Source: Acidimicrobiales bacterium
GTDB lineage: Bacteria; Actinomycetota; Acidimicrobiia; Acidimicrobiales; SHLQ01
Length of the DNA: 58,311 nt
Reading direction: 5' to 3'
Assembly: GCA_051011595.1 (NCBI GenBank)
Contig: JBPCTQ010000065.1
Span: forward strand, 1 to 58,311
This document shows positions 18,515 through 56,457 of the stretch, piece by piece (positions within the stretch are counted from its first letter, which is position 1; each line of letters starts with the position of its first letter). The position numbers were made by a program, and so were the translations under genes. The notes beneath the pieces were generated by a model that was not told where the DNA came from, did no database searches, and saw nothing but the letters and a program-made list of their open reading frames with translations.

Positions 18515-18538
18515 GGTGGCTCCTCTTGCCAGAACTAG

Positions 18539-19291: not shown

Positions 19292-19314
19292 CCGACCCCA
19301 CTGAGGAGCACCCC

Positions 19315-20076
19315 ATGTCCGACACCCCGATGAGCCGCCCCGGAGAGGTCGCCGGCTGGCCCAAACTGGTGGTCAAGTACCGCACCGACGAAGCCAACAT
19401 CGCCCCGCTGCTCCCGCCGGGGCTCACTCCCCTCGACGCCACCGTCACCATCGGCATCTACTGCGTCCCCATTCTGGGAGAACCCGAGTACGGCGTCAGC
19501 GTGAAGGTCCCGGCCGCCTGGAACGGCGTGGAGGGCCAGTACAACCTCGGCATGGGCATCGACCAGGAAGCTGCGGTGTTCATCAGCGGCGAGCTCAACG
19601 GCCAGCCCAAGTTCCTGTGCGACATCGACTTCTTCCGACTGGGCGACCACGTGGGTGCCCGCACGATCCACCAGGGGTACACCTTCATCGAATTCGCGGG
19701 CGAGGTCACCGGCACGACCGCCCCCGAGTCGGGCGACATCGTCGAACACGAATGGTGGACCAAGTACTCCCGGGCCATCGGCGGGGCCGAGAAGCAGTAC
19801 GACTTCCCACCCCACGTCGTCGACGTCGCCACCACGTTCGAGCAGATGCACATCGAGACCATCGACGGCGACCTGAAGCTGCTCGACAGCCCGTGGGACC
19901 CGGTCGCCCGCTACCTCCCGATGGACGAGATGGTCTCGGCTCGGCTGGTCACCCACCAGGCCAAGGCCCGCGACATCACCAACGCCGGCCCGCTCGATCC
20001 CGACGCCTTCTGGCCCCATGCCGATGTCATCGGCGGCAGCCGTTGGCCCGGCGACCGGGGCGGCCCGCGCCGCTGA
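19315..20076 (+). CDS. acetoacetate decarboxylase (ADC)-family protein
   Basis: ORF track 19162..20076, trimmed to ATG 19315 behind GAGGAG. YRTDEANIAPLLPPGL...IGIYCVP...EYGVSV pattern is typical of the ADC beta-cone family. Confidence 0.7.
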   Translation: MSDTPMSRPGEVAGWPKLVVKYRTDEANIAPLLPPGLTPLDATVTIGIYCVPILGEPEYGVSVKVPAAWNGVEGQYNLGMGIDQEAAVFISGELNGQPKFLCDIDFFRLGDHVGARTIHQGYTFIEFAGEVTGTTAPESGDIVEHEWWTKYSRAIGGAEKQYDFPPHVVDVATTFEQMHIETIDGDLKLLDSPWDPVARYLPMDEMVSARLVTHQAKARDITNAGPLDPDAFWPHADVIGGSRWPGDRGGPRR

Positions 20077-20080
20077 TTCG

Positions 20081-20473
20081 ATGACGAACGCCGACGGCAC
20101 CTTCCCACTGCAGGACTTCATCGGCTTCACCATCGAACACGACCAGGGTCAGGCCACCGCGTCTGTCGAACTCGACGAGCGGCACATGAACCCCAATGAA
20201 GTGACCCACGGTGCCATCCCCTTCACCCTCATGGACACGGCCATGGGCGCCGCGGTCATGTCGGTGATCGGCGAGCAGCAGTACTGCGCAACGATCGAGA
20301 TGCACACCCGGTTCCACCGGGGCAGCCAGTCGGGACGGCTGACGGCCACGGCCGAGGTGGTGACCACCGGCCGGAAGGTGATCCATCTCTCGGCCACCAC
20401 GACCGATGCCGACGGCCGGGTGGTCGCCACCGCCACCAGTAGTTACGCGGTGATCGACGGCCCCGCCGGCTGA
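20081..20473 (+). CDS. PaaI/hotdog-fold thioesterase
   Basis: ORF track 20018..20473, trimmed to ATG 20081. NPNEVTHGAIPFTLMDTAMGAAV and TAEVVTTGRKVIHLSATTTDADGRVVATAT are classic PaaI-family blocks. Confidence 0.8.
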   Translation: MTNADGTFPLQDFIGFTIEHDQGQATASVELDERHMNPNEVTHGAIPFTLMDTAMGAAVMSVIGEQQYCATIEMHTRFHRGSQSGRLTATAEVVTTGRKVIHLSATTTDADGRVVATATSSYAVIDGPAG

Positions 20474-20566
20474 TACCTGCGAGCGGCGATCGGATCCATC
20501 ACCTCCTCGGGTGCTCGCAGTGGATCGTGTCGGGTTCCGCCTCCCGCCCCATGCCATGCTGGGCCG

Positions 20567-21376
20567 ATGGATGCCCCCCACAGCTGGCAAGTGTCGGGCT
20601 CGGCGGCGCAGCAGTACGAGCAGTTCGTGGCCTCCTTCTTCGCCCCGTGGGCAGCAGACCTGGTCGGCCGGGTCGGGCTGGGGCCCGGTCAGCACCTGCT
20701 CGACGTGGCCTGTGGCACCGGCATCGTGACTCGGGCTGCGGGCCCGGTCATCGGCGCAGCCGGCTCGATAGTTGCCACCGACCTCAACGAGGGCATGCTC
20801 ACCGAGGCTCGGCGTCATGTCGTCGAGGCCGCGCCGGTCGAGTGGCGCCAGGCCGACGCCACCGACCTGCCCTTCGACGATCGAAGCTTCGACGCGGTGT
20901 TGTGCCAGCAAGGCCTGCAGTTCGTTCCCGATCGGGGCCGCGCGGTGGCCGAGATGCGGCGGGTCCTACGACCGGGCGGCGTGGCCGGAGTGAGCGTGTG
21001 GCGTGCACCCGAGCACAATCCGTACCTCTCGGCCCTGGCCGACGGTCTGCACCGTCACCTCTCGGCCGAAGCCGGCGCGGCCATGCTGGCACCGTGTGCG
21101 TTCGGGGATGGTGCCGCGCTGGCCGAACTGTTCAGCGCCGCCGGATTCGCCGACGTGGAAATCGATGTGGTCACGCTCGACCGTGAACCGGTCGGTGTGC
21201 TGGGCGCAGTCCGAGGGAACCTGGCCTCGTTGCCGATGGCCGCCGACGTCGAAGCCATGGCCGAGGAGGCCCGCGACGCGATGCTCGACGACATCGTCGA
21301 CTCCCTGGCCGACTACATCACCGATGATCGACTGTCGGTGCCCAACAGCGCCCACGTCGCCGTGGCCCGCGCCTGA
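20567..21376 (+). CDS. class I SAM-dependent methyltransferase
   Basis: ORF track 269 aa. LLDVACGTGIVT motif I, IVATDLNEGML, FDAVLCQQGLQF. Confidence 0.85.
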   Translation: MDAPHSWQVSGSAAQQYEQFVASFFAPWAADLVGRVGLGPGQHLLDVACGTGIVTRAAGPVIGAAGSIVATDLNEGMLTEARRHVVEAAPVEWRQADATDLPFDDRSFDAVLCQQGLQFVPDRGRAVAEMRRVLRPGGVAGVSVWRAPEHNPYLSALADGLHRHLSAEAGAAMLAPCAFGDGAALAELFSAAGFADVEIDVVTLDREPVGVLGAVRGNLASLPMAADVEAMAEEARDAMLDDIVDSLADYITDDRLSVPNSAHVAVARA

Positions 21377-21377
21377 T

Positions 21378-21602
21378 CTACGCGCAGTTGCCTCGTAGCT
21401 CGTAGCTCTCGGCTTCGGCCTCATCGTCGCTGGCCGCGACCTGACCGCTGGCGGTGATCTCGCCGGTATCACCGACCATGACCTCGTCGACTGTGCCCTC
21501 GGCTTCGGTGGGTCCGGACAGGGTGATCGTTCCGTTGCCGTCGGTGGCCTCCAGCGCGAGCACGATGGGGTCTTCGTCGTCTTCGGTCTGCGCATCGAGC
21601 AT
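21378..21602 (-). CDS. small acidic hypothetical protein (74 aa)
   Basis: ORF track. Strong GC3 bias in this frame. No recognisable family and a weak RBS. The upstream in-frame sequence is Arg-rich junk, so ATG 21602 is the plausible start. Confidence 0.3.
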   Translation of the reverse strand: MLDAQTEDDEDPIVLALEATDGNGTITLSGPTEAEGTVDEVMVGDTGEITASGQVAASDDEAEAESYELRGNCA

Positions 21603-21643
21603 GAGGTCCCGATCGTGCCGGCCGGCGACCGAGGCGTGACCGC

Positions 21644-21853
21644 TCAGGCCGGTTTGCGGGGCGGGATGTCGCGCCCGGTGCCGCGCGGCCCGGATCGCCC
21701 TGGATTGGTGTGGCCCGGCGCGTCGGCATGGCCGCTGGGCGCCGGGTTCTCGTTGGGTTCCTTGCCCGATCGGCGGTCGGCCGGCCGAGCCGGTGCCGAC
21801 TCGGGCCGGGTGCCCTTCGGTGTGGTTCGACCACCCTTGGTTCGTCTGGCCAT
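21644..21853 (-). CDS. small basic Pro/Arg/Gly-rich hypothetical protein (69 aa)
   Basis: ORF track. GGGAGG lies 6 nt upstream of the ATG. N-terminus is MARRTKGGRTTPKGT. No family recognised. Confidence 0.45.
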   Translation of the reverse strand: MARRTKGGRTTPKGTRPESAPARPADRRSGKEPNENPAPSGHADAPGHTNPGRSGPRGTGRDIPPRKPA

Positions 21854-21922
21854 GGTGCGCCTCCCGACAGTTGTCGACCCGATGGTAGTTCGCCAGTCAC
21901 CCTCGCCACCGACGATTGCGAG

Positions 21923-22741
21923 TCAGCGCGTCTGACCCTCGACACCCACGCGGTCGAGTACCTGGCCGTCGTCGTTGTGGCTGTGGGTGAAGCCGAGCTC
22001 GCGTTCGATGGCCACCGTGTCGGCGGACCGCAGCGCCAGGATGTAGGCCCGGCGAAAGCCGGCGGTGTGGTTCCCTCCCGAGCCGTGCATCACCCGCTCG
22101 TTGTGTACCGTGACGTCGCCCCGACTGATGGGGACCGGGACGGGTTCGTCGGTTGGCAACAAGTCGGTGCCGAGGGCGTGCGACTCGCCCCGGTCGCCGA
22201 ACTGCGGTTGATGCGGTCGTAACGCGGTCTCGTGATTGGTGCTGGGCACGAAGCGCATGCAGCCGTTCTCGACAGTGGAGTCGTCGATGGCCAACCAGAA
22301 CGTGGCGGTGCGGGTATCGGGGGTGTCGGGCCAGTACGCCATGTCCTGGTGCCAGGCGAACACTGCGTCTTCTTTGTACGGCTGCTTGGCCAACAGCTGG
22401 TCGTAGTCGATGGTCATGCCGTCGCCGCAGAGCTGCTGGGCGGCCGACGCTGCTCGCCGCTCGTACACGTTGCCCTGCCACGCCGCGTGATAACGCCGGG
22501 GCAACATGACGTTCACGATCGAGTAGTCCTCGGGATTTCGGCCGTAGTCGCCGGCCATGTCACAGAAATCCTTGCCCGGGACCTCGATCTCGCGACGCAG
22601 GAAGCGGTCGTACACCACCGACAGTTCGTCGACTTCGGCTTCGGTCAACAAGCCGCGCAGATGTACGTACCCGTGTTCGGCGAAGAACGCACGCTCGTCG
22701 TCGCTCACCGCGTAGTGGTCTCCGTCGATTCGACTACCCAT
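21923..22741 (-). CDS. phytanoyl-CoA dioxygenase (PhyH) family Fe(II)/2-oxoglutarate dioxygenase
   Basis: ORF track 21923..22930, trimmed to ATG 22741 (MGSRIDGDHY). WHQDMAYW (HxD facial triad), later VHNERVMHGSGGN and RRAY. Confidence 0.85.
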   Translation of the reverse strand: MGSRIDGDHYAVSDDERAFFAEHGYVHLRGLLTEAEVDELSVVYDRFLRREIEVPGKDFCDMAGDYGRNPEDYSIVNVMLPRRYHAAWQGNVYERRAASAAQQLCGDGMTIDYDQLLAKQPYKEDAVFAWHQDMAYWPDTPDTRTATFWLAIDDSTVENGCMRFVPSTNHETALRPHQPQFGDRGESHALGTDLLPTDEPVPVPISRGDVTVHNERVMHGSGGNHTAGFRRAYILALRSADTVAIERELGFTHSHNDDGQVLDRVGVEGQTR

Positions 22742-22837
22742 CAGCTCCCCTATCGGTCGGCTCCATTGTCGCGCACGACCCGCGCCGACCCACCGGCCGT
22801 TGGGGCCGGGTGCGAGCCGCTTGGGTAGGGTGGATCC

Positions 22838-24064
22838 ATGGCCGATGTGACCCCCGCCGAAGACGAACTGCCGTTGATCATCTCCGTCGACGACCACGTG
22901 ATGGAACCCAAGGATCTGTGGCAGCAGCAACTACCTCCCAGCCTGCGAGATCGCGGTCCCCGGGTGGTCCAGGAGATGATTCGCCTCAAGTTCGAAGGTG
23001 GCCACTACGGGTTCGAACGCAACGACCCCGACGGTCAGCTCTGCGACGTGTGGCTGTTCGAGGACAGTGTCACCCCCACCGGCTTCCTCCACGGCCCCGC
23101 CGGGGTACCCCGCGAGGAACAACGCAACGTGGCTGCGGTCTACGAAGATCTCCGGCCCGGCACGTACGACCAGACCGCCCGCCTGGCCGACATGGACCTC
23201 AACCACGTCGAGGCGGCCATCAACTACCCCAACATCTTTCCCCGCTTCTGCGGGCAGGGATTCCTCGAACGCGACGACAAGGATCTCGCCTTCGAGTGCC
23301 TCAAGATCTACAACGACTGGATCATCGACGACTGGGGTGGCGGTGCCGGCAAAGGACGCCTCATCCCGCTCACCCTGGTTCCGCTCTGGGACCCCGAGAT
23401 GGCCGCGGCCGAGGTACGGCGGTGCGCCGCCAAGGGAAGCCACGCCATTGCCTTCTCCGAGAACCCGTCGAAGCTGGGTTGCGCCACCATGTACAGCGGC
23501 GACTGGGATGTGTTGTGGACGGCCTGTGAGGAGACCGACACCACCGTTTCCATGCACATCGGGTCATCGTCGTCGATGCCCACCACATCCGACGATGCGC
23601 CGCTGGCCACATCGATGTCGCTGTACGCCCAGAACGCCGAGGGTTCGATGGTCGACTGGGTGTTCTCCGGCACACTCCAGCGTTTCCCCGACATCAAGAT
23701 CGCCTACGCCGAGAGCCAGGTCGGTTGGATGCCGTTCCAGATGGAACGAATGGACTCGGTGTTCCGCGAGGGTCGGGGCGGAGTGGGCGGCGACGGCCCG
23801 CTCCCCAGCGAGATCGTGCGGGGCCGAGTCTTCGGGTGCATCTTCGACGACCTGGTCGGCCTCAAGCAGCGCGAAGACGTCGGCATCGATCAGATCCTGT
23901 TCGAGACCGACTATCCGCACTCCGACGGCACCTTCCCGCACTCCCGCAAGGTGGCGCACAGCATGTTCGCCGCGGTCGGCATGAACGCCGACGAGTGCAC
24001 TCGGGTGATGCGCACCAACGCCATCCGGGCCTACGGCCTCGAACGTTTCGGCATCACGGCCTGA
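22838..24064 (+). CDS. amidohydrolase-2 family protein (third copy in the window)
   Basis: ORF track 408 aa. IISVDDHVMEP metal motif and FETDYPHSDGT C-terminal motif. Confidence 0.85.
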   Translation: MADVTPAEDELPLIISVDDHVMEPKDLWQQQLPPSLRDRGPRVVQEMIRLKFEGGHYGFERNDPDGQLCDVWLFEDSVTPTGFLHGPAGVPREEQRNVAAVYEDLRPGTYDQTARLADMDLNHVEAAINYPNIFPRFCGQGFLERDDKDLAFECLKIYNDWIIDDWGGGAGKGRLIPLTLVPLWDPEMAAAEVRRCAAKGSHAIAFSENPSKLGCATMYSGDWDVLWTACEETDTTVSMHIGSSSSMPTTSDDAPLATSMSLYAQNAEGSMVDWVFSGTLQRFPDIKIAYAESQVGWMPFQMERMDSVFREGRGGVGGDGPLPSEIVRGRVFGCIFDDLVGLKQREDVGIDQILFETDYPHSDGTFPHSRKVAHSMFAAVGMNADECTRVMRTNAIRAYGLERFGITA

Positions 24065-32700: not shown

Positions 32701-35028
32701 TCAGGGCGCCAGGCAGGGGGCCTCGTTGCACACATCGATGAGCACACCGTCGAGCTGCAAGAACGCACTCTTCTGGAGTCGGGCACTCACCTGATGGCGC
32801 GGGTTGGCGTGGGGATCGACCCCGTAGTCGGGGGGCCGGGGCGGCACGTTGGTGATGGGGGGATGCGGGTTGCCGCTGTCCCACACCACCAGCGCCGAAC
32901 CGCCGAAGGGATACGACGGCACCGGCGGAATGCCGAAGAATGGGTCGACATCGCTGTGGCGTCCCGGCGCCAGGCCCGGGCTGACCAGATGGGCGCCGAT
33001 GGTTCGGGCCTCGACCTCGGTGGCCACGTTGGCCACCTGATGATCACCGAACGCTTCGTGCAGGATCACCCGGTGCGGCGGCGTCCCCGGGTAGGGGTCG
33101 TCGGTCATGTGGTGGGCATACCCGTTGGCTTCGCCCCGGTCCCACAGCATCTGGATGATGCTCAATCCGACGGCGCGGTCGATCTCGTCGGGATAGCTGG
33201 GGTTGAGCAGCAGGGCGTACACGTCGAAGTCGACACTGCGGCGCAGCAGCGTGGAGTAGTTCATACCCGGTACCCCGAGCGCGGCCGACGTCCACTCCGT
33301 CGACACGGCCGTGGCGGCACCGCCGATGATGCCGCCCTGGCTGATCCCCTCGAAGTAGACCTCACCGGGAACCAAGACCGAGCTGTCCGAAGCCCCCGCT
33401 CGAAAGGCCGGGTCGCTGGCGAACCCGTTGGGATCCTTCAACAGTCGGCCCAGGAACAACGTGTTGAGAATGCCTTGTTGGACCCGATCAGCCAGCGTCG
33501 GGAACCCGGACAGATCGGTCAACAGCGTCGCCACATGGGGAATGTCCTCCGAGGCCATCCCGATCCAGTCGGTGCCGCAGTAGGTCATGTTGGACTCGTT
33601 GGCCATCGACCGCTGACTGAACGAGTTGGTCTGCTGGTACTCACCCAACAGGCCGTGGCCGTACACCGTGCCGCGCGAGGGAGTGACCGGGTCGGCACCG
33701 TTGTTGGAGGCCGACCGGGGGATGTTGCACACGAATCGCGCCGTATAGGTGCCGTTGCGGACGGGCAGGGCATCAACATCGGTGGATCCGCCGTATTCGA
33801 ACCGGGATCCGGGAAGGCCGTCGCCGGTGAGATAGAGCGGGACCTCGAACAATCCCCACACCCGCCGCTGGATCAGCGAGTCGGCCTCGTCCTGGACTGC
33901 CGTCACCGAGAAGTTCGGCGCCGCTCCGTCCAGCGAGGCGAAGGCGTCGTCTCGGATGTGCAACATGCGCTCGGACAAGTTGCGTTCGCTGGCCACGGTG
34001 AAGTCCCACGCCAGGTAGAGCTCGTTGCGCTCGACGCCGGCGCGACGAAGGGTGCCGAAGAGACGTTCCACCGCCGGGCGCCGCGCCTCGATGGCCGGCT
34101 CGAAGGTGGGAATCCGGTCGCGGTAGAGCCGGAAGGCCCGGGACGGCTCGATCGCCTGACCGTCGCCGTCGACCAGGTTGCGCAGGGCCACCACGTAGCG
34201 CCGCCCCTCCTCGAAGTTCACTCCCGGCCGTATGAACAACACCCGGGTGTCGTCGGAGGTGGCGTTGCTGTCCAGCTCGGCCCAGTGCAGATGCTGAGCG
34301 CCGGTGACCGTGTCGATGATCACGATGGGCGAGTCGGGGTCGAGCGACCGCTCGATGTCGGTGATGGGTGCCATCTGGCTGGCGGCCGGATCGAGCCCCG
34401 GCACCTTGGTGACGATGGCCGACCCGGGACTGAATCCGTCGTTGCGGTTGAGCTCGGTGGGGTCGACGGGATCACCATCGACGTTGGTGGGCATCGCCGC
34501 AGCCACGAAGTCGACCCGCCGGCCGGTGTCGGAGGTCGGGTCGCGGCGGGTGAAGTGATCGTTGGGGAACGGCAGCACGCAGCGGGCGGGATCGAGTGGG
34601 TCACACCCTTGCTCGGTCTCGACATCGGGCTCCCATGACCAGGTGGTGGTGGCGACCTTCGGCGACAGCGAGCCGTTGGACCGCCAGGCCAGCACCACCA
34701 GCTTCGCCACCCCGGGTTCGGTGGTCGACAGGGTGGCGCTCGTGCGGCGACCGTCGAGGACGAACTCGTCGGTGACCTCGCGCCAGTTCCCCTGCGGCGT
34801 GCTGCCGGTCCGCAGGTAGGCCAGGAACGAGTCGGCGTCGATGGTGCGCTTCAACCGCACCTCGACCTCGACGTCGCCGTCGCCCTCGATCTGGGTGGCC
34901 GGCGCCGGATCGAGGATCCGCACCGGTGCACCGCCACGACCGGGATCGGCGTCGAGCACCGTCACCCAAGTGCAGCCCGAGGCCAGTACGGCCAGGGCTG
35001 CCACAACGGTCACGAGTCGCCTGCGCAT
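32701..35028 (-). CDS. large secreted lipoprotein of unknown function
   Basis: ORF track 32701..35472, trimmed to ATG 35028 behind GGGGGAG. Lipobox LASGC. About 775 aa with good GC3 bias throughout. Family not recognised; a hydrolase fold is only a guess. Confidence 0.7.
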   Translation of the reverse strand: MRRRLVTVVAALAVLASGCTWVTVLDADPGRGGAPVRILDPAPATQIEGDGDVEVEVRLKRTIDADSFLAYLRTGSTPQGNWREVTDEFVLDGRRTSATLSTTEPGVAKLVVLAWRSNGSLSPKVATTTWSWEPDVETEQGCDPLDPARCVLPFPNDHFTRRDPTSDTGRRVDFVAAAMPTNVDGDPVDPTELNRNDGFSPGSAIVTKVPGLDPAASQMAPITDIERSLDPDSPIVIIDTVTGAQHLHWAELDSNATSDDTRVLFIRPGVNFEEGRRYVVALRNLVDGDGQAIEPSRAFRLYRDRIPTFEPAIEARRPAVERLFGTLRRAGVERNELYLAWDFTVASERNLSERMLHIRDDAFASLDGAAPNFSVTAVQDEADSLIQRRVWGLFEVPLYLTGDGLPGSRFEYGGSTDVDALPVRNGTYTARFVCNIPRSASNNGADPVTPSRGTVYGHGLLGEYQQTNSFSQRSMANESNMTYCGTDWIGMASEDIPHVATLLTDLSGFPTLADRVQQGILNTLFLGRLLKDPNGFASDPAFRAGASDSSVLVPGEVYFEGISQGGIIGGAATAVSTEWTSAALGVPGMNYSTLLRRSVDFDVYALLLNPSYPDEIDRAVGLSIIQMLWDRGEANGYAHHMTDDPYPGTPPHRVILHEAFGDHQVANVATEVEARTIGAHLVSPGLAPGRHSDVDPFFGIPPVPSYPFGGSALVVWDSGNPHPPITNVPPRPPDYGVDPHANPRHQVSARLQKSAFLQLDGVLIDVCNEAPCLAP

Positions 35029-35464
35029 CGGTCCGCTCCCCCACTCGCCGATGCGACTGACTGTACCGGAGGGTCCCGATCGGGCGCCACGGGGCGGGCG
35101 AACCTGTGGTGGGCACGAATGAGTCGCCGGCTCTGGTGGAGGAACTGATCGGGATTCGCCTCGACGAAGGCGACCAGCAGCTCGCGAGAGTGCTCGTCGG
35201 CGTCGTAGTACCGGCCCGTCTGCTGATCCATGAAGCCCAACTCCCGCTCGGAGAGCTCGTCGAGACGCTGGTTGCGTGGGGAGCATCGGCGCGAGCAGCT
35301 TCATCGGACTCCTCAATGTGGACGAAATTGCCGGCCGACCTCCACACAGACCGTCTCTTGGGCAGTGGCGGCCGCCCGGTGGATCAGCGCAGGCACAGGG
35401 GCGCAGAGCCATGTTCTCGGGCGCGTCACGAGAAGTTCGAGAATCGTTGGAATCGACTTGTGTA

Positions 35465-35480
35465 TCGAACATATGTTCGA
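35465..35480. promoter_or_regulatory. LexA (SOS) box TCGAACATATGTTCGA
   Basis: Perfect match to the actinobacterial/Gram-positive SOS-box consensus TCGAAC-N4-GTTCGA. It is embedded in a perfect 22-bp palindrome, 35462-35483. It ends 12 nt upstream of the HNH gene ATG and overlaps a TATGTT -10-like hexamer. Confidence 0.75.
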
Positions 35481-35492
35481 TACCGTGAAGGC

Positions 35493-36743
35493 ATGGAATC
35501 AGCCACCGTCGAACAGAGCGTGCAGGAGGCGCACGAGCAGCTGATGGCTGCGTCCGCTCTGCTCGCTCATGGCGACACAGATGCCGACGGCCTCGAGCCG
35601 CTGGTGAGTTCGATCCGCCAAGTCGAACGCGACTGCGCCGGCCTGCTGGTCGCCGTCGCCCGGTTGGCCGACCAGGCCGGTCGGTCGGCTGAGGTCGTCC
35701 TGGCCGATCACGACAGCGTCACGTCGGCCCGGGTCGCCGCCGATGTGGCTCGGGCCGAGATGTCTGGTCGGTTCCCCGAGCTGGGCGAGGCGATCCGTGT
35801 CGGGTCGGCTCGACCCGACAACGTCGACGTGCTGGCCCGCATGTGCGACCGCATGACCGACGCCGAGATCGGTGTCCTGATCCAATCGGACAACCGCATC
35901 GCCGACGCGGCCGGCCGGCTCCGGGTCGACAGCTTCCGGCGCCGCGTGCATCGGCTGCGTGACCGCATCCGAGCCGACCACGGCGACACCGCTGCCGAGC
36001 AAGCATCGAAGGAGACCATGGCCAGTGTCTGGCCCAGCCGAGACAGCCAGACCTACAGGCTCGCGGCCGTGCTCGATCCGCTCCAGGGCGCCGCCGCCCA
36101 CCAAGCCCTCCGCCACCAATGCCGAGTGCTGGCCGAGCAACTCGGACCCGACCACGGACTCAGCGCCGATCAGATCGCCGCCCAAGCCCTCGTCGACTTG
36201 ATGGTGCGTGGCGCCAACACCGAAGCGACCCACGACAACACCATGCCGGTCGTGCACCTCGACGTGCTCACCGACGGCTCGACACTGGTCGCTGGCTCGC
36301 ATGACCACACGATCGCCGAGACCAGCGACGGCCTCCCGGTTTCGCCCGGCACCATCGGCCGGCTGGCCTGCGACTGCGTCGTCCGCCGCATCGACACCCT
36401 GCCCGACGGCCGAGTCAACGTGTCCCGCTCAGCGCGGACAGCCACATCCGCCCAACGATCCGCCCTCCGCGCCCTCTACCCCGGGTGTGCCATCTCCGGC
36501 GCCCCCTGGTCGCAACTCGAGATACACCACGTCGTGTTCCGCGAACACGGCGGCCCCACCAGGCTCGACAACCTCATCCCCCTCTCCAGACGCTGGCATC
36601 ACCGCATCCACGACGACGGCTGGCGCCTCGTGCTCGACACCGACCGCCGCCTCCGTCTCTACCAACCCGACGGCACCCTCCACCTCGACCTCCCCCCACC
36701 CACTCCCGTCCTCTCCCAGGCGGACACCACCCTCGCCGCCTGA
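35493..36743 (+). CDS. DUF222 + HNH endonuclease protein (mycobacterial REP13E12-like family)
   Basis: ORF track 35106..36743, trimmed to ATG 35493 (MESATVEQ). C-terminal HNH block CAISGAPWSQLEIHHVVFREHGGPTRLDNLIPLSRRWHHRIHDDGW. Confidence 0.85.
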   Translation: MESATVEQSVQEAHEQLMAASALLAHGDTDADGLEPLVSSIRQVERDCAGLLVAVARLADQAGRSAEVVLADHDSVTSARVAADVARAEMSGRFPELGEAIRVGSARPDNVDVLARMCDRMTDAEIGVLIQSDNRIADAAGRLRVDSFRRRVHRLRDRIRADHGDTAAEQASKETMASVWPSRDSQTYRLAAVLDPLQGAAAHQALRHQCRVLAEQLGPDHGLSADQIAAQALVDLMVRGANTEATHDNTMPVVHLDVLTDGSTLVAGSHDHTIAETSDGLPVSPGTIGRLACDCVVRRIDTLPDGRVNVSRSARTATSAQRSALRALYPGCAISGAPWSQLEIHHVVFREHGGPTRLDNLIPLSRRWHHRIHDDGWRLVLDTDRRLRLYQPDGTLHLDLPPPTPVLSQADTTLAA

Positions 36744-36881: not shown

Positions 36882-37508
36882 TCAGGTCAGTGCCGACTCG
36901 AGGAAGCGAAGGAGCTCGCGGCGCCGCATCGCCATCGAGCGCAGGGTGGGCTCGACCCCGACCGCCCGCAACACCTCGACTTCGGTGGCAGTGCCCACGA
37001 CCGTCGAGTAGGCGCTGAGCAGCAGCAACCGGGCGTCGGTGGGCCGCAACCGGCCCTCGGCCATCTCGATCTCGAGGAAGGCCACGGCCCGTTCGACCAG
37101 GGGCTCGAGCCGCTCCGACAAACGAACGGCGGTGGGAGAGCCCGGCCGCGAGACCTCGCGCAGCAACCCGAGCAGCTCGGGACGGCGCAGCGCCAGCCGA
37201 AAGACCGACCGCACCACCGACTCGATGCGGGCAAACCCGGTGGCGCTGGTGAGCACGGCGGCCTCGAGGGTGCCGACCAGCTCGTCGGCCGCCCGATCGA
37301 CCACCGCGTCGAGCAGCTCGCGCTTCGAGCCGAAGTGGTAGAGGATCGTCTGCTTGCGGAGACCGAGCGCGCCAGCGAGATCGTCGAGCGACGTGCCGTC
37401 GTAGCCGGTGGTGCCGAACGACGCGAGGGCGGCACCGAGCACTCTCGTCTTGGTGTCGGGAAGGTCGACGGACGCGGCCACGACCACATGGTAGGCGGTC
37501 TCTACCAT
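36882..37508 (-). CDS. TetR/AcrR family transcriptional regulator
   Basis: C-terminal 208 aa of ORF track 36882..37853, trimmed to ATG 37508. HTH TSLDDLAGALGLRKQTILYHFGSKRELL. Confidence 0.85.
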   Translation of the reverse strand: MVETAYHVVVAASVDLPDTKTRVLGAALASFGTTGYDGTSLDDLAGALGLRKQTILYHFGSKRELLDAVVDRAADELVGTLEAAVLTSATGFARIESVVRSVFRLALRRPELLGLLREVSRPGSPTAVRLSERLEPLVERAVAFLEIEMAEGRLRPTDARLLLLSAYSTVVGTATEVEVLRAVGVEPTLRSMAMRRRELLRFLESALT

Positions 37509-37517
37509 GTGGTAGAG
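37484..37517. promoter_or_regulatory. nested palindromes: candidate TetR operator covering both divergent start codons
   Basis: CCACATGGTAG-N7-CTACCATGTGG (37484-37512) overlaps CTCTACCA-tg-TGGTAGAG (37500-17). Only 16 nt separate the two start codons, which implies leaderless or overlapping promoters. Confidence 0.5.
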
Positions 37518-37524
37518 AGAGCAC

Positions 37525-39861
37525 GTGATCGTGGAGCACCTCGCCGGCAAACGCGTCGCCATCACCGGCACCACGGGCTTCCTGGGAACGGCGCTGGTCG
37601 AGCGTCTCCTGCGGTCCGTTCCCGACATCGAGCTGGTGTTGTTGGTGCGTCCCGGCCGCCGGGGGGCCCAGCGCCGAGTCGAACGCGACATCCTCCGCAA
37701 CGACGCCTTCGACCAGCTCCGGGCGCAACACGGGGACGACTTCGACACCGCCGTGGCCAGCCGGGTGACCGCCGTGGCCGGCGACGTCAGCGTCGATGGC
37801 CTGGGGCTCGACGCCGCGGCCCGCCAGAACCTGGCCGAATGCGACATCGTCATCCACTCCGCGGCCGCGGTGTCGTTCGATTCACCGTTGGATCAGGCAG
37901 TCGAGATCAACCTGCTGGGTCCGGTTCGGATCGCCGAACTGCTCGATGACCTCGGCGTCGAGCCGCATCTGGTGGCCGTGTCCACGTGTTACGTCGCCGG
38001 CAGTCGCCGCGGCGACGCCCCCGAGATCGCGGTCGACGACAGCCCGTTCTTCGTCGATGTGGACTGGCGGCGCGAGGTCGATGCCGCCCGCCGGGCGCGC
38101 CACGATGTCGAAACCCAGAGCCGGGAGCCGGACCGCCTCACCGAGTTCCGCCGCCGGGCGCGTGCCGAGCTGGGAGCAGCCGGGACTCCGGCACTGGCGG
38201 CCAAGACGGAACAACTCCGCAACCGCTGGGTCACCGATCAGATGGCCGAGGCGGGTCGAGCCCGCGCCTCGTCATTGGGATTCCCCGACGCCTACGCCTA
38301 CACCAAGGCCCTCGGAGAAAAGGCCCTGCTCGAGACCACGGGCACCACCGGTCTCGACGTGTCGATCGTGCGGCCCTCCATCATCGAATCGGCGGTCGAG
38401 CATCCCTCGACCGGCTGGATCCGCGGATTCCGTATGGCCGAACCGGTCATCATCTCCTACGCCCGCGGGTTGCTGAAGGAGTTCCCCGGCGTTCCCGAGG
38501 GCACCGTCGACGTCATCCCGGTCGACATGGTGGTGGCCGCCATCTGTGCGGTGGCCGCTCGGGGCCACCAGCCAGGGCCCGACGGCACCGACATCATCCA
38601 GGTGGCATCGGGTTCGGTCAACCCGCTCAAGTACGGCCAACTCGTCGATCTCACCCAAGCATGGTTCACCGAGCACCCGTTGTACGACGAACGCGGTCAG
38701 CCGATCGCCGTGTCGTCATGGTCGTTCCCCGGGCGGGGTCGGGTGCAGAAGCAGCTGGAGCGGGCCAAGACCGTCATCGAACGAACCGAGGCCGTCGTCC
38801 ACAAGCTGCCGTTGCGGGGCCGCCAGGCCGAGTTCGGCGCCGTCCTCGAAGACCGGCGCGAACAAGCCGAACGGGCGCTCGGGTATGTCGAGCTGTACGG
38901 CGCCTACGCCGAGTGTGAGGCCATCTACGGTCTCGACCGCCTGCTCGGGTTGTGGGACAGCCTCGACGACACCGACCAGGCAGCTTTCGCCTTCGACCCC
39001 CGCGCCATCGACTGGCCCACGTACGTGCACGATGTGCATCTGCCGTCGGTGGTCAAGGCGGGCCGGGTCAAAACCACCCCGGGAGCCCGCACCGGACCCA
39101 GCCGCAGCGAACGCCTTCGTGGTCAGGTCCTGTCACCGGACCGACACCTGGCGGTCTTCGACCTGGAGAACACCCTCATCGCCTCCAACGTGGTGGCCTC
39201 CTACGCGTGGCTGGCCAGCCGCCGGCTACCCGACCGTGACCGGATTCGGTTCGTGATGCGAACGGTGGCCGAAGCCCCCACCTTGTTGGCCCTCGACCGG
39301 GTCGACCGCAGCGACTTCCTCCGGTACTTCTACCGACGCTACGACCTGGCGCCGGTCGACCAGCTCGAACGAGACGCGATCGAATCGTTCAGCGACCTCA
39401 TCCTCACCAAGTCGTTCCCCGCCGGCATTCGGCGGGTGCGCGAACACCGCCGGCTGGGGCATCGAACCGTCCTCATCACCGGCGCCCTCGACTTCGTGGT
39501 TCGTCCCCTCGAGCCGCTGTTCGACGACATCATCGCCCCATCGCTGGGGGTGAAGGGCCCGGCCGAACGCCGCACCTACGACGGCCGCATGACCGACGTC
39601 CCTCCCACCGGCGAAGCCCGCTACCAGGCCATGGCCGACTACGCCGCGGCCCACGACATCGATCTGCGCGAGTCGGTGGCCTACGCCGACTCGGCCAGCG
39701 ACCTGCCCATGCTCGAGGCAGTCGGCTTCCCGGTTGCCGTCAACCCCGAGACCAAACTGGCCACGTTGGCCCGCAAGCGAGGCTGGTTGGTGGAGCACTT
39801 CGCCAAGTCCCCCGGCGGTCCCCGCAAGCTGGTGCCCCTCGCCCCCCGGAGTGCTGTGTGA
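37525..39861 (+). CDS. fatty acyl-CoA/ACP reductase (extended SDR, male-sterility-type NAD-binding domain) fused to a HAD-IB (SerB-like) domain
   Basis: ORF track 778 aa, GTG start. ITGTTGFLGTALVERLL, YAYTKALGE (YxxxK). C-terminal HAD-IB blocks are VFDLENTL (DxE rather than DxD), ITGALDFVV and YADSASDLPML. Confidence 0.85.
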   Translation: MIVEHLAGKRVAITGTTGFLGTALVERLLRSVPDIELVLLVRPGRRGAQRRVERDILRNDAFDQLRAQHGDDFDTAVASRVTAVAGDVSVDGLGLDAAARQNLAECDIVIHSAAAVSFDSPLDQAVEINLLGPVRIAELLDDLGVEPHLVAVSTCYVAGSRRGDAPEIAVDDSPFFVDVDWRREVDAARRARHDVETQSREPDRLTEFRRRARAELGAAGTPALAAKTEQLRNRWVTDQMAEAGRARASSLGFPDAYAYTKALGEKALLETTGTTGLDVSIVRPSIIESAVEHPSTGWIRGFRMAEPVIISYARGLLKEFPGVPEGTVDVIPVDMVVAAICAVAARGHQPGPDGTDIIQVASGSVNPLKYGQLVDLTQAWFTEHPLYDERGQPIAVSSWSFPGRGRVQKQLERAKTVIERTEAVVHKLPLRGRQAEFGAVLEDRREQAERALGYVELYGAYAECEAIYGLDRLLGLWDSLDDTDQAAFAFDPRAIDWPTYVHDVHLPSVVKAGRVKTTPGARTGPSRSERLRGQVLSPDRHLAVFDLENTLIASNVVASYAWLASRRLPDRDRIRFVMRTVAEAPTLLALDRVDRSDFLRYFYRRYDLAPVDQLERDAIESFSDLILTKSFPAGIRRVREHRRLGHRTVLITGALDFVVRPLEPLFDDIIAPSLGVKGPAERRTYDGRMTDVPPTGEARYQAMADYAAAHDIDLRESVAYADSASDLPMLEAVGFPVAVNPETKLATLARKRGWLVEHFAKSPGGPRKLVPLAPRSAV

Positions 39862-41480
39862 GTTCGAAGTCCAAACCCAAACGAGCAGCTCGACCGGGGT
39901 TGGTCCTCGACGTCGACCGGTCCACTCCTCCCCTGGTGTTCCATCACGGCGAGGGGTTTCGTACCGAGAAGCTGCCGCCCGGGCGCAGCCGGGTGATCTA
40001 CCCGGCCGAACCGATCGACGGTCTGGCCGACCCCGACGGCGCCATCCGCCACGCCCTCGGTCACCCGCTCGGCGATTCGAAGCCGCTCGGTGAGCTGCTG
40101 TCCCCCGACATGCAGCTCACCATCGCCTTCGACGACATCTCCTTGCCCCTGCCGCCCATGCGTCGACCCGACATCCGTCAGCGCATCATCGAGGCGGTGC
40201 TCGACACCGCGGCCGAGGTCGGTGTCGACGACATCCACATCATCGCCGCCCTGGCCCTGCACCGCCGCATGACCGAGAGCGAGCTGCGTCACGCCGTCGG
40301 CGACCGGGTCTACGACGCCTTCGCCCCCAGCGGCCGGCTCTACAACCACGACGCCGAAGACCCCGACGGCATGGTCCTGCTGGGCGAGACCGACCACGGC
40401 GAAGAGGTCCAGATGAGTCGCCGGGCAGCCGAGAGTGACCTCATCGTCTACGTCAACATCAACCTGGTGGCCATGGACGGCGGTTGGAAGTCCACGGCCA
40501 CCGGATTGTCCGGCTACCAGGGTCTTCGTCACCACCACAACGTCGACACCATGCGCAAGAGTCGTTCGTTCATGGACCGCCACAAGTCCGAGCTCCATCA
40601 CAGCAACTGGCGGATGGGCAAGGTGATCCGCGACGCCGACGTGAACGTCTTCCAGATCGAGACCACCGTCAACAACAACACCTTCGGGGCCGACGGCCCG
40701 CTGTCGATGCTGCAGAAGCGCGAGTGGGAGTGGTCACCACGCGAGCGGGCCACCTTCGTGGGGATGCAGAAGGGCCTCGACCTCATGCCGGCCCGGGCCC
40801 GGCGCAAGGTCTTCAGCGGCTGGCAGGCGCCCTACGAGCTCACCTCGGTACAGGCCGGCGAGGTCGAGGCGGTGCACGAGGTCACCACCGAAAACGTGTA
40901 CCGCCAGCACCTGGTACCGGTCGAGGGCCAGACCGATGTGCTCACCATGGGTCTGCCCTACATCTGCCCGTACAACGTGAACTCGATCATGAACCCGATC
41001 CTGGTCATGTGCCTGGGGCTGGGGTACTTCTTCAACCTGTACCGGGGTCAGCCCCTCGTACGGGAGGGCGGGGTGTTGATCATGAGCCACCCCACACCCT
41101 GGGAATTCCATCCCGTCCACCACCCCAGCTACATCGACTTCTTCGAGCAGGTCCTGGCCGACACCACCGACCCCCTCGAGATCGAACAGAAATACGAGAC
41201 CCAGTTCGCCGAGGACGAGTGGTACCGCCATCTGTACCGCACCTCACACGCCTACCACGGCGTCCATCCGTTCTACATGTGGTACTGGGGTTCGCACGCC
41301 CTCCAGTGGCTGGGCCAGGTCATCATCGTGGGCGGCGACACCAAAGCCGTCCGGCGCCTGGGATTCCGCCCGGCGTCCACCCTGGCCGATGCCCTCGAGA
41401 TGGCCAGCGACGTCGTCGGCCCCCAGCCCACCATCACCCATGTCCACAACCCGCCCATCTTGATGGCCGACGTGTCGTGA
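39858..41480 (+). CDS. LarA-like (lactate racemase N-terminal domain, DUF2088) protein
   Basis: ORF track 540 aa. The GTG start overlaps the upstream TGA (GTGA). Blocks IAFDDISLPLPP, IIAALALHRRMTESE and AMDGGWKSTATGLSGYQGLRHHHN resemble LarA DITRP / THR / GGRKS...H blocks as I remember them. Confidence 0.7.
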   Translation: MSSKSKPKRAARPGLVLDVDRSTPPLVFHHGEGFRTEKLPPGRSRVIYPAEPIDGLADPDGAIRHALGHPLGDSKPLGELLSPDMQLTIAFDDISLPLPPMRRPDIRQRIIEAVLDTAAEVGVDDIHIIAALALHRRMTESELRHAVGDRVYDAFAPSGRLYNHDAEDPDGMVLLGETDHGEEVQMSRRAAESDLIVYVNINLVAMDGGWKSTATGLSGYQGLRHHHNVDTMRKSRSFMDRHKSELHHSNWRMGKVIRDADVNVFQIETTVNNNTFGADGPLSMLQKREWEWSPRERATFVGMQKGLDLMPARARRKVFSGWQAPYELTSVQAGEVEAVHEVTTENVYRQHLVPVEGQTDVLTMGLPYICPYNVNSIMNPILVMCLGLGYFFNLYRGQPLVREGGVLIMSHPTPWEFHPVHHPSYIDFFEQVLADTTDPLEIEQKYETQFAEDEWYRHLYRTSHAYHGVHPFYMWYWGSHALQWLGQVIIVGGDTKAVRRLGFRPASTLADALEMASDVVGPQPTITHVHNPPILMADVS

Positions 41481-42385
41481 TGCGGGTTCGGTCACCGATC
41501 GGGGGGCTGTCGTTCCCGTACCGAGCCGGCACCACTCCCGCAGGTGTCGACCCGGCCCCCTCCCGGGGCCGTTTGGGCGCCGACTACGACACCGACTGGG
41601 CTCGCCGCCCATCGGCCCGGGTGGCGCGGGCCGCGATGGTCGAAGGAGTGATGCGACCGGTGGTGGCGGCGCTGGCTGCACCCCGGCGACGCGGGGCCGA
41701 TCGACTCGACGACCTCGACGGGCCCGTGTTGTTCGCCGCCAACCACCACAGCCACGTCGACACGCCGGTGCTGCTCACCTCCATCCCGGTGCGGTTCCGC
41801 CGGCAGCTGATCGTGGGCGCCGCCGCCGACTATTTCTTCGGCAACCACGTCACCGGAGCGATCTCGGCGCTCACCATCGGTGCCATTCCCATCGAACGCA
41901 CCAAGGTGGGTCGCAAGTCGGCCGATCTGGCAGCCGAGCTCATCGACGACGGACACAGCATGTTGCTGTACCCCGAGGGCGGTCGCAGCCCCGACGGATG
42001 GGGCCAGCCCTTCCGGGGCGGTGCCGCCTATCTCGCGGCCCGTTGTTCGGTACCGGTGGTGCCGGTGCACATCGAAGGAACCGGCCGCATCCTGCCCAAG
42101 GGCCGAAACCGCCCGAAACCGGCGGTCACCACCGTCACCTTCGGACACCCCCTGTCCCCCACCGAAGACGAACGGTCGGCTCGATTCGCGGCCCGGTTGG
42201 AGGCGGCGGTGGCCGAGCTGGCCGACGAGGCGTCGAGCGATTGGTACTCGGCCCGGCAGCGGGCCCATGCCGGCTCGACACCCTCACTGCATGGTCCCGA
42301 TGCCGGTGCGTGGCGCAGGGTGTGGGCCCTCGGCGACCGCGATTCCCGACGTCGGCGAGCCAAACGGCGCTGGCCCGAGCTCTAG
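41480..42385 (+). CDS. 1-acyl-sn-glycerol-3-phosphate acyltransferase (PlsC/AGPAT) family
   Basis: C-terminal 301 aa of ORF track 40484..42385. The ATG overlaps the upstream TGA by 1 nt. HX4D motif NHHSHVD, YPEGGRS, VPVVPVHIEG. Confidence 0.85.
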   Translation: MRVRSPIGGLSFPYRAGTTPAGVDPAPSRGRLGADYDTDWARRPSARVARAAMVEGVMRPVVAALAAPRRRGADRLDDLDGPVLFAANHHSHVDTPVLLTSIPVRFRRQLIVGAAADYFFGNHVTGAISALTIGAIPIERTKVGRKSADLAAELIDDGHSMLLYPEGGRSPDGWGQPFRGGAAYLAARCSVPVVPVHIEGTGRILPKGRNRPKPAVTTVTFGHPLSPTEDERSARFAARLEAAVAELADEASSDWYSARQRAHAGSTPSLHGPDAGAWRRVWALGDRDSRRRRAKRRWPEL

Positions 42386-42391
42386 ACAGGT

Positions 42392-42994
42392 TCAGCCGTC
42401 GGCTCGGTGGGGTGCACAGGTGTCGATGGCATCGGCCTCGGCCCCAGCCACCTCGGCGGTGGGAACCGCACCCAGGTCGAGACCGGCCTTGCCGAACCGG
42501 CGGAACAAGAAGTCGATGATGCACTGGGCCTCGGTGAGCTCGAAGCCCCGAGTGATGGTGAGATCGTCGAGGGCCTGATCACGGAGCTCGGCCACGTCGG
42601 CGGCCAGCGGACCGGCGTCGAACCCGTACAGGGCCGCCCAAGCGATGAGCTCTTCGTCGGTCATCTCGGTGAGGGCGTCGTTGAGGTCGCGTTCGGTCAG
42701 CTCGCCGAAGCCGATCGACTCGTCGAGCTGGAGGGGTTCGTCGGCGGTCAGGCGGCACCCGCTCGACACCTGGTACAAGGTGTCGAGATGCTCCGGCGAC
42801 AAGTCGGCACTCGACGACAAGGCGTCGGGACCGATTGCCTCGATGGTGGCGTCCACGTAACAGGTGGCCTCTTCGACGGACCACCCCGCCCCCTGGAGCT
42901 CGGCAATGGCTTCGTCGCGCCCGGAGTCGCCGCCGCAGCCGGCGACCAGCAGGGTCAGCCCGAACAGCAAGGACGCGAAAAGACGAGGTGACAC
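42392..42994 (-). CDS. acidic lipoprotein of unknown function
   Basis: ORF track 200 aa, GTG start. Lipobox LLVAGC. No family recognised. Confidence 0.6.
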   Translation of the reverse strand: MSPRLFASLLFGLTLLVAGCGGDSGRDEAIAELQGAGWSVEEATCYVDATIEAIGPDALSSSADLSPEHLDTLYQVSSGCRLTADEPLQLDESIGFGELTERDLNDALTEMTDEELIAWAALYGFDAGPLAADVAELRDQALDDLTITRGFELTEAQCIIDFLFRRFGKAGLDLGAVPTAEVAGAEADAIDTCAPHRADG

Positions 42995-55045: not shown

Positions 55046-56457
55046 CAGAACTGGAAGTAGAGGAACGGGCTGAACGTCTGCGACGAAACGACGATCAACG
55101 CGGCGGGTAGGGCCAGGGTCATGAGCAGGGTTCGGCCCGCGGCAATGGTGCGGCTGTCGGGTTCGAGCAGGCGGCGCCGGCCCGGCTCGCGGTGGGGAAC
55201 CACGAACACCACCGATGCCAGGATCATCACCAACAGCGCCCGGCTGTCCAACGCCGCGCCGATGGTGTCGTTGTCGAACGAGAAGTCGAACCGCCCCAGG
55301 GCGGCCAACACTTCGCCGGCCCGGTCGAGGGTGGGTGCTCGGAAGATGATCCAGCCCACCATGACGATGGCGAGGGTGACCACCCGACCGCCGGGACCCG
55401 GCAACAGGCGTCCCCCGAATCGGCGCTCCACCAGCAACCACACGCCGTGATAGGCCCCCCAGATGACGAAGGTCCACGCCGCGCCGTGCCACAACCCGGT
55501 GAGTCCGAACACGATGATCAGGTTGCGCTGGGTGTGGCCGGTGCGGTTGCCCCCCAGCGGGATGTACACGTAGTCGCGGAACCAGTGCGACAGGGTCATG
55601 TGCCAGCGCCGCCAGAATTCGGTGACCGACTCGCTGGTGTAGGGCCGGTCGAAGTTCTCGGGAAAACGAAAACCCAGCATCAGGCCGAGGCCGATGGCCA
55701 TGTCGGAGTACCCCGAGAAGTCGAAGTAGAGCTGGAGGGTGTACGCCACGGTGCCGACGATGGCCTCGGTGGTCGACAGCGACCCGGTGGCCGGGTCGAA
55801 GACGGCGTCGGCCACCACGCCGATGGTGTCGGCCACCAACACCTTCTTGGCCAGCCCGAAGCTGAACCGGACCACACCGTCGCTGACTCCGTCGAGCGAG
55901 ATGGTGCGATCGAGGAGCTGGGCGTGGATCTCGCCGTAGCGCACGATGGGCCCGGCGATGAGCTGAGGAAACAGGGCGATGAACAGCAGGTAGTCACGGA
56001 AGCGGGCGACCGGTTCGTCGCGACCGGTGGCCACGTCGATGCTGTAACTCAGGCGCTGGAAGGTGAAGAAGCTGATCCCCACCGGCAGCACCACATCGCT
56101 CAGCCACGACGGTGCATCACCCAGACCGAGCAGCGGACCGAACACGTCGTCGGCCAGGAAGCCGGCGTACTTGAAGTAGGCCAACACACCCAGGTTGAGC
56201 ACGACCGAGGCGATGAGCGCCCGCTTCACGGTGGCATCGTCGCCCCCGAGCCGGGCCTCGTGGGCCCGGTCGACGATGCGGTAGTCGATGGCACTGGTGG
56301 CCACCAGCATCAGCACGAACCACCCACTCCCCCACGCGTAGAAGAGCAGGCTGAACGCCAGCAGCGCCGTGTTGCGCGAACGCGGCGGCAGGGCCCAGAC
56401 CACGGCCAGGGTGATCGGGAGGAAGAAGAACAGAAAGGTGATCGAGCTGAAGACCAC
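55045..56457 (-). CDS. MBOAT-family membrane O-acyltransferase (AlgI/DltB-like)
   Basis: ORF track 470 aa. MVFSSITFLFFFLP start and FWRRWHMTLSHWFRDYVYIPLGGNR catalytic-His block. Confidence 0.85.
   Translation of the reverse strand: MVFSSITFLFFFLPITLAVVWALPPRSRNTALLAFSLLFYAWGSGWFVLMLVATSAIDYRIVDRAHEARLGGDDATVKRALIASVVLNLGVLAYFKYAGFLADDVFGPLLGLGDAPSWLSDVVLPVGISFFTFQRLSYSIDVATGRDEPVARFRDYLLFIALFPQLIAGPIVRYGEIHAQLLDRTISLDGVSDGVVRFSFGLAKKVLVADTIGVVADAVFDPATGSLSTTEAIVGTVAYTLQLYFDFSGYSDMAIGLGLMLGFRFPENFDRPYTSESVTEFWRRWHMTLSHWFRDYVYIPLGGNRTGHTQRNLIIVFGLTGLWHGAAWTFVIWGAYHGVWLLVERRFGGRLLPGPGGRVVTLAIVMVGWIIFRAPTLDRAGEVLAALGRFDFSFDNDTIGAALDSRALLVMILASVVFVVPHREPGRRRLLEPDSRTIAAGRTLLMTLALPAALIVVSSQTFSPFLYFQF

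Follow-up and report, generated by a model that had tools for sequence, protein, structure and literature searches.

Which pathway is encoded by an actinobacterial operon that places a homologue of the racemase LarA between a fatty acyl-CoA reductase and a glycerolipid acyltransferase? The operon lies in a 58,311-bp contig of an uncultured Acidimicrobiales bacterium (the whole contig is referred to here as the window), and comprises three co-directional genes coding for a fatty acyl-CoA reductase (FAR) fused to a HAD domain (FAR-HAD), a LarA-like protein and a PlsC-type acyltransferase, with a divergent gene for a TetR-family regulator at its 5' side. An original prediction, made from the sequence alone, described this arrangement and could name no pathway for it. 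Open reading frames (ORFs) and Pfam matches confirm all four genes at the coordinates then proposed, together with the domain calls, and a pathway can now be named because the LarA-like protein is homologous to the protein encoded at the elbC position of myxobacterial ether-lipid operons. The homology of the individual modules makes it likely that this operon is an actinobacterial, split-up counterpart of the myxobacterial elb ether-lipid cluster.

Gene organization and relationship to the elb cluster

The three genes are transcribed rightwards and are chained by overlapping stop and start codons, as originally described. Read base by base, the TGA stop of the FAR-HAD gene overlaps the GTG start of the LarA-like gene within GTGA (39858-39861, + strand), and the TGA stop of the LarA-like gene shares one base with the ATG start of the acyltransferase gene within TGATG (41478-41482, + strand). 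The FAR-HAD fusion (37525-39861, + strand) is 778 aa long, with an NAD_binding_4 fatty acyl-CoA/thioester reductase domain at aa 13-340 (37561-38544, + strand; PF07993, E 2.5e-57, 194 bits) and a HAD-IB domain at aa 543-731 (39151-39717, + strand; PF12710, E 4e-23), the latter scoring 86.4 bits against TIGR01490, below the cut-off of 98.3. The LarA-like protein (39858-41480, + strand; 540 aa; Lar_N, PF09861, E 1.2e-35) and the PlsC/AGPAT-type acyltransferase (41480-42385, + strand; 301 aa; PF01553, E 1.3e-17, 64.3 bits against a cut-off of 23) follow.

In Myxococcus xanthus the elbABCDE operon corresponds to MXAN_1531-1527 (Lorenzen et al. 2014, reviewed in PMC9131029 and PMC13012113). The elbA and elbE genes code for NAD-dependent epimerase/dehydratase proteins, elbB for a HAD protein and elbD for a multidomain enzyme, and elbC is listed as of 'unknown function' (PMC9131029; PMC13012113). 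M. xanthus loses its alkyl and vinyl ether lipids when elbD is disrupted, an effect that does not depend on AGPS, and no enzyme has been assigned to the formation of the ether bond in the Elb pathway (PMC9131029). Because the gene context of LarA homologue (LarAH) group 15 resembled this operon, group-15 neighbourhoods were fetched, and both Anaeromyxobacter oryzae and a Myxococcaceae contig were found to have the order Epimerase / HAD / Lar_N / FAR+AMP-binding+PP-binding+Acyltransferase / Epimerase, with a multidomain protein of 1478-1593 aa. This is the published elbA-E layout.

All four modules of the window operon have counterparts in these myxobacterial operons, at 28-51% identity by BLASTP, and the genes are adjacent and co-directional in both. 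The FAR domain matches the N-terminus of ElbD (28-30% identity, E 1e-52 to 1e-55), the HAD domain matches ElbB over its full length (38-39%), the LarA-like protein matches the ElbC-position protein over its full length (49-51%), and the PlsC-type enzyme matches the C-terminal acyltransferase domain of ElbD (34-36%). The earlier suggestion that a reductase combined with an AGPAT follows the logic of Elb-type ether-lipid synthesis is borne out by this correspondence. The view of the LarA-like gene as an unexpected insertion does not hold, as a homologue occupies the elbC position and LarAH groups 14-16 had already been tabulated together with AGPAT, HAD and reductase genes; group 14 neighbours include AGPAT, HAD, COG1063 and thioester-reductase genes, and group 15 neighbours two short-chain dehydrogenase/reductases (SDRs), a HAD gene and an acyl-CoA synthetase (Desguin 2020, Table S1).

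The two systems differ in how the parts are joined. In elb the FAR and AGPAT domains reside within the giant ElbD protein together with acyl-CoA synthetase (ACS) and acyl carrier protein (ACP) domains, and the HAD protein is encoded by a separate gene, whereas the window operon has a FAR-HAD fusion, a separately encoded AGPAT, and no ACS, ACP or SDR parts. The elb genes are flanked by the two SDR genes elbA and elbE, whereas a TetR gene with a conserved operator is attached to the window operon.

The motifs quoted in the original prediction are all present. In the FAR domain the GxxGxxG (TGTTGFLG) and YxxxK (YAYTK) motifs are both kept in relatives, and a weak 'Sterile'-type C-terminal region lies at aa 453-504 of the fusion (PF03015, 26.6 bits, under the cut-off of 35.4). 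HAD motif I reads DLENT in 82 of 84 sequences, with the nucleophile Asp kept and Glu at Asp+2 (DxE), whereas ElbB has the canonical DVDGT (DxD); motif II is LITGA, motif III has Arg where ElbB has Lys, and motif IV is YADSASD. The acyltransferase has the HX4D block NHHSHVD and YPEGGRS, both kept in all relatives, and the LarA-like protein has GGWKS followed by a His at +16 (K211 and H227).

A 504-aa protein encoded 6 kb downstream (47809-49323, - strand) is a fusion of a HAD domain and a PF01553 acyltransferase. It is paralogous to both the HAD domain (31% identical) and the PlsC-type enzyme (27% identical) of the operon, and at least seven related loci have the same fusion at most 10 kb from their operon. 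The protein may be a housekeeping counterpart and the source of these operon parts.

Conservation among Acidimicrobiia and other Actinomycetota

A species-level genome scan with a single protein query and one genome per species returned at least 592 genomes with close homologues, of which 80 loci were kept, all from Acidimicrobiia and with at least 73% identity to the query. FAR-HAD lies 5' and PlsC 3' of the LarA-like gene in 80 of 80 loci, wherever the contig reaches; the synteny put forward originally is thus conserved, with no break seen, and because the order recurs in all of these species-level loci the gene grouping is more than chance. The divergent TetR homologue adjoins the operon in 53 of the 80 loci. 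In 42 of the 80 a Zn-dependent dehydrogenase of ~400 aa (ADH_N/ADH_zinc_N) is inserted between the FAR-HAD and LarA-like genes, as at 8760-9983 of locus L008, and it is present at the equivalent position in loci L089, L090 and L091. Its scattered distribution among close relatives points to repeated gain or loss. Carriers include marine, soil, sludge (Microthrix) and sponge-associated lineages, and two other actinobacterial metagenome-assembled genomes (MAGs) carry the four-gene form.

Rubrobacter, also a member of the Actinomycetota, shares the FAR-HAD fusion and likewise has a LarA homologue of group 14. The order in Rubrobacter radiotolerans (CP007514.1; L089) is PlsY / FAR-HAD / Zn-dependent dehydrogenase / Lar_N, with the PlsY-type gene at L089 3841-4452, so that a PlsY-type (acyl-phosphate:glycerol-3-phosphate) acyltransferase comes first where the window has a PlsC-type enzyme last; the Zn-dependent dehydrogenase is present and no TetR gene adjoins, the reverse of the window. 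The presence of a glycerol-3-phosphate (G3P) acyltransferase as the first gene points to a 1-acyl-glycerol-3-phosphate intermediate. Sinninghe Damste and colleagues reportedly described, in 2023, a putative 1-O-alkyl-G3P operon in Rubrobacterales resembling elb, which is probably this cluster. The title of Sinninghe Damste 2023 reports Rubrobacterales to be dominated by mixed ether/ester lipids, an indirect argument for ether lipids as the product of such a cluster.

Across these three lineages the constant core, judged by homology, is FAR, HAD, a LarA-like protein and a glycerol-phosphate acyltransferase. Neither the type of operon nor its gene context is new to the literature; the form in the window is a variant without the Zn-dependent dehydrogenase and with a TetR gene. 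The linkage is not absolute, as an Archangium sp. MAG has a lone ElbC-type LarA homologue (L085 10001-11602) outside any elb cluster; a fatty-acid desaturase, an amine-oxidase-like flavoprotein and a metallophosphatase are encoded near it.

Cofactor and catalytic residues of the LarA-like protein

The LarA-like protein is identical to MGI9601035.1 and belongs to NCBIfam NF052592 (LarAH14/15/16), scoring 891.9 bits over aa 16-539 (cut-off 740). Its identity is 63% to Afer_1430 and YM304_22240, both group-14 references, 58% to Frankia LarAH14 and 55% to the Rubrobacter homologue Rxyl_2107. An AlphaFold2 model (pLDDT 88) used in a Foldseek search has LarA-family structures as its matches 1-19 (best E 1e-33), the best being the single-His LarA of S. 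plurextorum (LarA_Sp; 9q3k, TM 0.76/0.85).

Residue equivalences were taken from a profile alignment to the lactate racemase LarA of Lactiplantibacillus plantarum (PDB 5HUQ), with which the protein has the Lar_N domain and the two-domain fold in common, and invariance was scored over 36 group-14 and group-15 sequences. D93 corresponds to Asp72, which contacts the ribose of the nickel-pincer nucleotide cofactor (NPN), H135 to the catalytic His108, K211 to Lys184, the thioamide tether, and H227 to the nickel ligand His200; all four are invariant, although the sequences are only ~50% identical. The earlier assignment of GGWKS and the following His as holders of the cofactor is upheld by the alignment of K211 and H227, and the profile alignment does not show the loss of all cofactor-binding residues. 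The second catalytic His, which the original prediction could not find, is truly absent, the His174 position being an invariant Asn (N202). Similarly, Arg75, which in LarA binds the substrate carboxylate and the cofactor phosphate, is replaced by an invariant Leu (L96). As aligned, the protein keeps the cofactor-holding residues and one acid/base residue, and has lost the second base and the carboxylate clamp. Groups 14 and 15 were already reported to be without His174, and the sister group 16 has lost the tether Lys. The window protein is further distinguished from L. plantarum LarA by its length (~110 residues longer), a C-terminal domain that cannot be aligned by sequence, and a lipid rather than organic-acid gene context.

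With Asn and Leu invariant at these two positions, racemisation of hydroxyacids appears unlikely. The Frankia orthologue LarAH14 points the same way: after purification and loading with NPN in vitro it showed none of seven racemase/epimerase activities, the assays being restricted to alpha-hydroxyacids (Desguin 2020).

The closest solved structures are LarA_Sp (PDB 9Q2U/9Q3K) and LarA_Bw (9Q3J), found at E 1e-31 by sequence and ~20% identical to the window protein; LarA_Sp is covalently bound to NPN, and neither has an assigned function (PMC12611868). Both have Asn at the His174 position and the motif Y-R-x-x-H-A-[FY]-H, as does the window protein, in which Y372 and H470 match the ligand-contacting Tyr307 and His401 of LarA_Sp. 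They differ in having Lys at the Arg75 position, Leu here, and His306, Pro here, and in being encoded among glycolytic and triose-phosphate genes, not lipid genes. The nickel-binding residue of LarA_Sp is given as His211 in one section and His221 in another (PMC12611868, sections 2.4 and 2.5); by residue count in the HMMER alignment it is 211, that is, 16 after the tether Lys, as in LarA and the window protein.

Domain fusions of the family are uninformative as to function, the only one to turn up joining it to a chlorophyll a/b-binding domain. This protein (P0184; 947 aa) is 37% identical to the window protein in its Lar_N region, which precedes the chlorophyll a/b-binding domain, and suggests either a eukaryotic (algal) ElbC homologue or a chimeric gene model.

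A possible role in ether-lipid synthesis

The homologies described above indicate that the operon is probably the Acidimicrobiia form of an Elb-type pathway for 1-O-alkyl-glycerol (ether) lipids. From a long-chain acyl thioester the FAR domain would make a fatty aldehyde or alcohol by reduction; acylation of a glycerol-phosphate backbone would fall to the PlsC-type enzyme, and the handling of a phosphate ester to the HAD domain. A fatty acyl-CoA reductase and a PF01553 acyltransferase acting on a C3 phosphate backbone are likewise part of the eukaryotic and myxobacterial GNPAT/AGPS/FAR1 route, which leads to alkyl-dihydroxyacetone phosphate (alkyl-DHAP). No AGPS (FAD-linked oxidase) homologue was found in the operon or the window, and the LarA-like protein would need to stand in for AGPS as well as for the acyl/alkyl-DHAP reductase.

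We propose, as a tentative and rather doubtful extension, that the LarAH14/ElbC proteins could be the missing ether-bond-forming enzymes of the AGPS-independent Elb pathway, acting through NPN 'borrowed-hydride' chemistry. With its tethered cofactor, the LarA-like protein would act on a glycerol-3-phosphate lipid, 1-acyl-G3P for instance, and take up the hydride of its sn-2 carbinol, giving a transient 2-keto (DHAP-like) intermediate, as AGPS also needs, that would activate C1. The sn-1 ether would then form either by AGPS-like acyl-to-alkyl exchange or by reductive coupling with the aldehyde, and the hydride would return to the same face without inversion, for which reason a single acid/base His would be enough. 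Such a scheme would account for the presence of only one His and the lost carboxylate clamp, as well as for the occurrence of the nearest structural relatives among triose-phosphate genes, and would allow AGPS-like chemistry in bacteria that make lysophosphatidate from G3P with either PlsY or PlsC. The lipid product, the use of the cofactor and the chemistry are what we infer; taken as a whole, this is the best explanation we can offer, and we hold it at about even odds, with the pathway assignment likely and the role of the LarA-like protein doubtful.

Several observations weigh against it. The operon has no AMP-binding, PP-binding or flanking Epimerase-family genes, so that the ACS and ACP domains of ElbD and SDR reductases of the ElbA/ElbE type are missing from it; the sole SDR of the window is 21 kb away. 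The Zn-dependent dehydrogenase of Rubrobacter and about half of the relatives is absent here, with no copy anywhere in the window. To our knowledge elbC has never been knocked out alone. Known ether synthases use flavin (AGPS) or other chemistry, and we know of no precedent for NPN-dependent ether formation. NPN enzymes are typically oxygen-labile, and the hosts here are mostly aerobes. A Pfam scan of the ~44 window ORFs found no member of the LarB, LarC or LarE families, in agreement with the original prediction, and none was seen in ~10 inspected neighbourhoods of relatives; co-occurrence of larBCE in these taxa is not covered by two papers of 2024, one in JBC and one in mBio. Chemotaxonomy of Acidimicrobiia records ordinary polar lipids only, by methods blind to ether cores. 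ElbE is reported to be important in M. xanthus (PMC9131029), and the inactivity of NPN-loaded Frankia LarAH14 (Desguin 2020) also counts on this side.

Some of the same observations would fit a protein that works without NPN, as a scaffold, a lipid-binding subunit or an enzyme with some other cofactor, in which the Lys and His serve otherwise. The absence of larBCE from the window and the inspected neighbourhoods, the mostly aerobic hosts, the loss of the tether Lys in group 16 and the failure of the NPN-loaded Frankia protein to show activity in vitro all favour this. We nevertheless regard it as improbable given that D93, H135, K211 and H227 are invariant at ~50% identity and that the closest solved relative carries covalent NPN, and lar biosynthesis genes are in any case often unlinked from larA homologues (Desguin 2020, Table S1).

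A second alternative leaves the ether lipids aside, with the operon making fatty alcohols and wax esters or remodelling storage glycerolipids; FAR would go on to the alcohol, PlsC and HAD would form a phosphatidate-to-diacylglycerol branch, and the LarA-like protein would be an accessory. HAD-AGPAT fusions are common in actinobacteria, with one 6 kb away, and Candidatus Microthrix, which stores lipids, is among the carriers. Actinobacterial FAR enzymes are known for wax-ester synthesis (PMC3522743). This is an unlikely explanation, however, in that neither the operon nor the window has a WS/DGAT-type wax synthase, genetic evidence links the homologous cluster of myxobacteria to ether lipids, Rubrobacter with the same core is reported to be rich in them (as far as the title of Sinninghe Damste 2023 conveys), and the most conserved gene is left without a role.

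The stereochemical inversion originally suggested, for example one-way epimerisation at the sn-2 position of a glycerol or hydroxyacyl intermediate within an otherwise Elb-type pathway, draws on the fact that all characterised LarA homologues are racemases or epimerases and on one-way racemisation having been suggested as a possibility for the single-His structures (PMC12611868), but is made unlikely by the Asn and Leu invariant across groups 14 and 15, by the score of 0/7 activities for Frankia LarAH14, and by there being no known step of ether-lipid synthesis that needs inversion. A route to long-chain 1,2-diol lipids through 2-hydroxy fatty acid chemistry was also set aside, the carboxylate-binding Arg being missing.

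A link between ElbC and the LarA superfamily was in none of the papers searched, and it joins the ether-lipid and nickel-pincer literatures. For the nickel-pincer field LarAH groups 14 and 15 are orphans with one catalytic His and no substrate, and the link offers a substrate class, namely glycerol-phosphate lipids and a fatty aldehyde or alcohol, along with a genetic system, M. xanthus elbC, for testing the role of the LarA-like protein. If the proposed chemistry is true, it would be the first non-isomerase reaction of a LarA-type enzyme and the first role of an organometallic nickel cofactor in membrane-lipid synthesis. Geochemists commonly attribute 1-O-alkylglycerol lipids to anaerobes; if the operon makes 1-O-alkylglycerols, Acidimicrobiia and their relatives would be a large overlooked aerobic source of environmental alkylglycerols, and the growing number of exceptions to the bacterial/archaeal 'lipid divide' would increase further.

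The TetR-family regulator and its operator

The longest ORF of the regulator (36882-37508, - strand) starts at an ATG at 37508 and codes for 208 aa, with an N-terminal helix-turn-helix domain (PF00440, aa 24-69, E 1.8e-12). Another ORF, at 36887-37489, was rejected as the TetR gene because it is in the wrong frame. The divergent promoter region has two copies of the operator. One of them, copy B (TCTCTACCA-tg-TGGTAGAGA; 37499-37518), is a perfect 9+9 inverted repeat, and copy A, cgACCACATGGTAG (37481-37494), its inverted-repeat partner, is a half-degenerate palindrome at or beside the probable TetR start; their cores, at 37483-37492 and 37504-37513, are 21 bp apart. These are the only two matches to TACCANNTGGTA with up to one mismatch within the 58 kb, copy A having one mismatch, where 0.2 would be expected by chance.

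The core ACCANNTGGT, representing the operator TACCA-N2-TGGTA, is present in at least 48 of 54 TetR/FAR intergenic regions of relatives; five of the remaining six have copies clipped by the extraction window and one locus is a variant. Paired copies with a spacing of 20-22 bp are also found in three relatives (L007, L008 and L038). This phylogenetic footprint across orthologous intergenic regions is good evidence that TACCA-N2-TGGTA is a real, if predicted, operator, and the cross-species conservation backs the control of the operon by TetR that had been proposed at the outset.

The palindrome was also said to cover both start codons. It does not cover that of FAR-HAD, ending 6 nt 5' of the GTG at 37525, and it covers the TetR ATG at 37508 only if this is the true start. 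In relatives the operator is always 5' of the TetR start, with only 8-13 residues before a conserved T(K/R)ERIL, and for these reasons the true start is probably the GTG at 37481, giving a protein of 199 aa. The TetR repressor would bind one or two TACCA-N2-TGGTA palindromes just 5' of the first gene and repress the operon. Its release is probably triggered by a lipid or acyl-CoA signal, in analogy to TetR regulators that sense lipids, whereupon the three genes would be co-translated. A leaderless transcript across the 16-bp gap was considered and dropped, as purine-rich Shine-Dalgarno-like stretches precede the FAR-HAD start both here and in relatives. A scan for consensus promoters and terminators gave nothing usable close to the operon.

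Other features of the window

The PlsC gene faces a convergent 200-aa ORF (42392-42994, - strand) with a signal of lipoprotein type (LVAGC) and without a Pfam match. Conservation of this ORF is limited to L007 and, weakly, L024, so it is placed outside the operon. In the region just upstream of TetR (32701-36743) gene calls are ambiguous: a 923-aa ORF without a Pfam match overlaps a 614-aa ORF on the opposite strand, and a 545-aa protein with a C-terminal HNH nuclease motif comes next. At 53945-56457 (- strand) a protein with an AlgX-like SGNH domain adjoins an MBOAT membrane O-acyltransferase, a pair typical of polysaccharide or teichoic-acid O-acylation systems. A cluster at 15028-24064 includes three Amidohydro_2 genes, a PhyH-type dioxygenase, an acetoacetate-decarboxylase-like gene, an SDR and a methyltransferase, and may be a catabolic or tailoring island.

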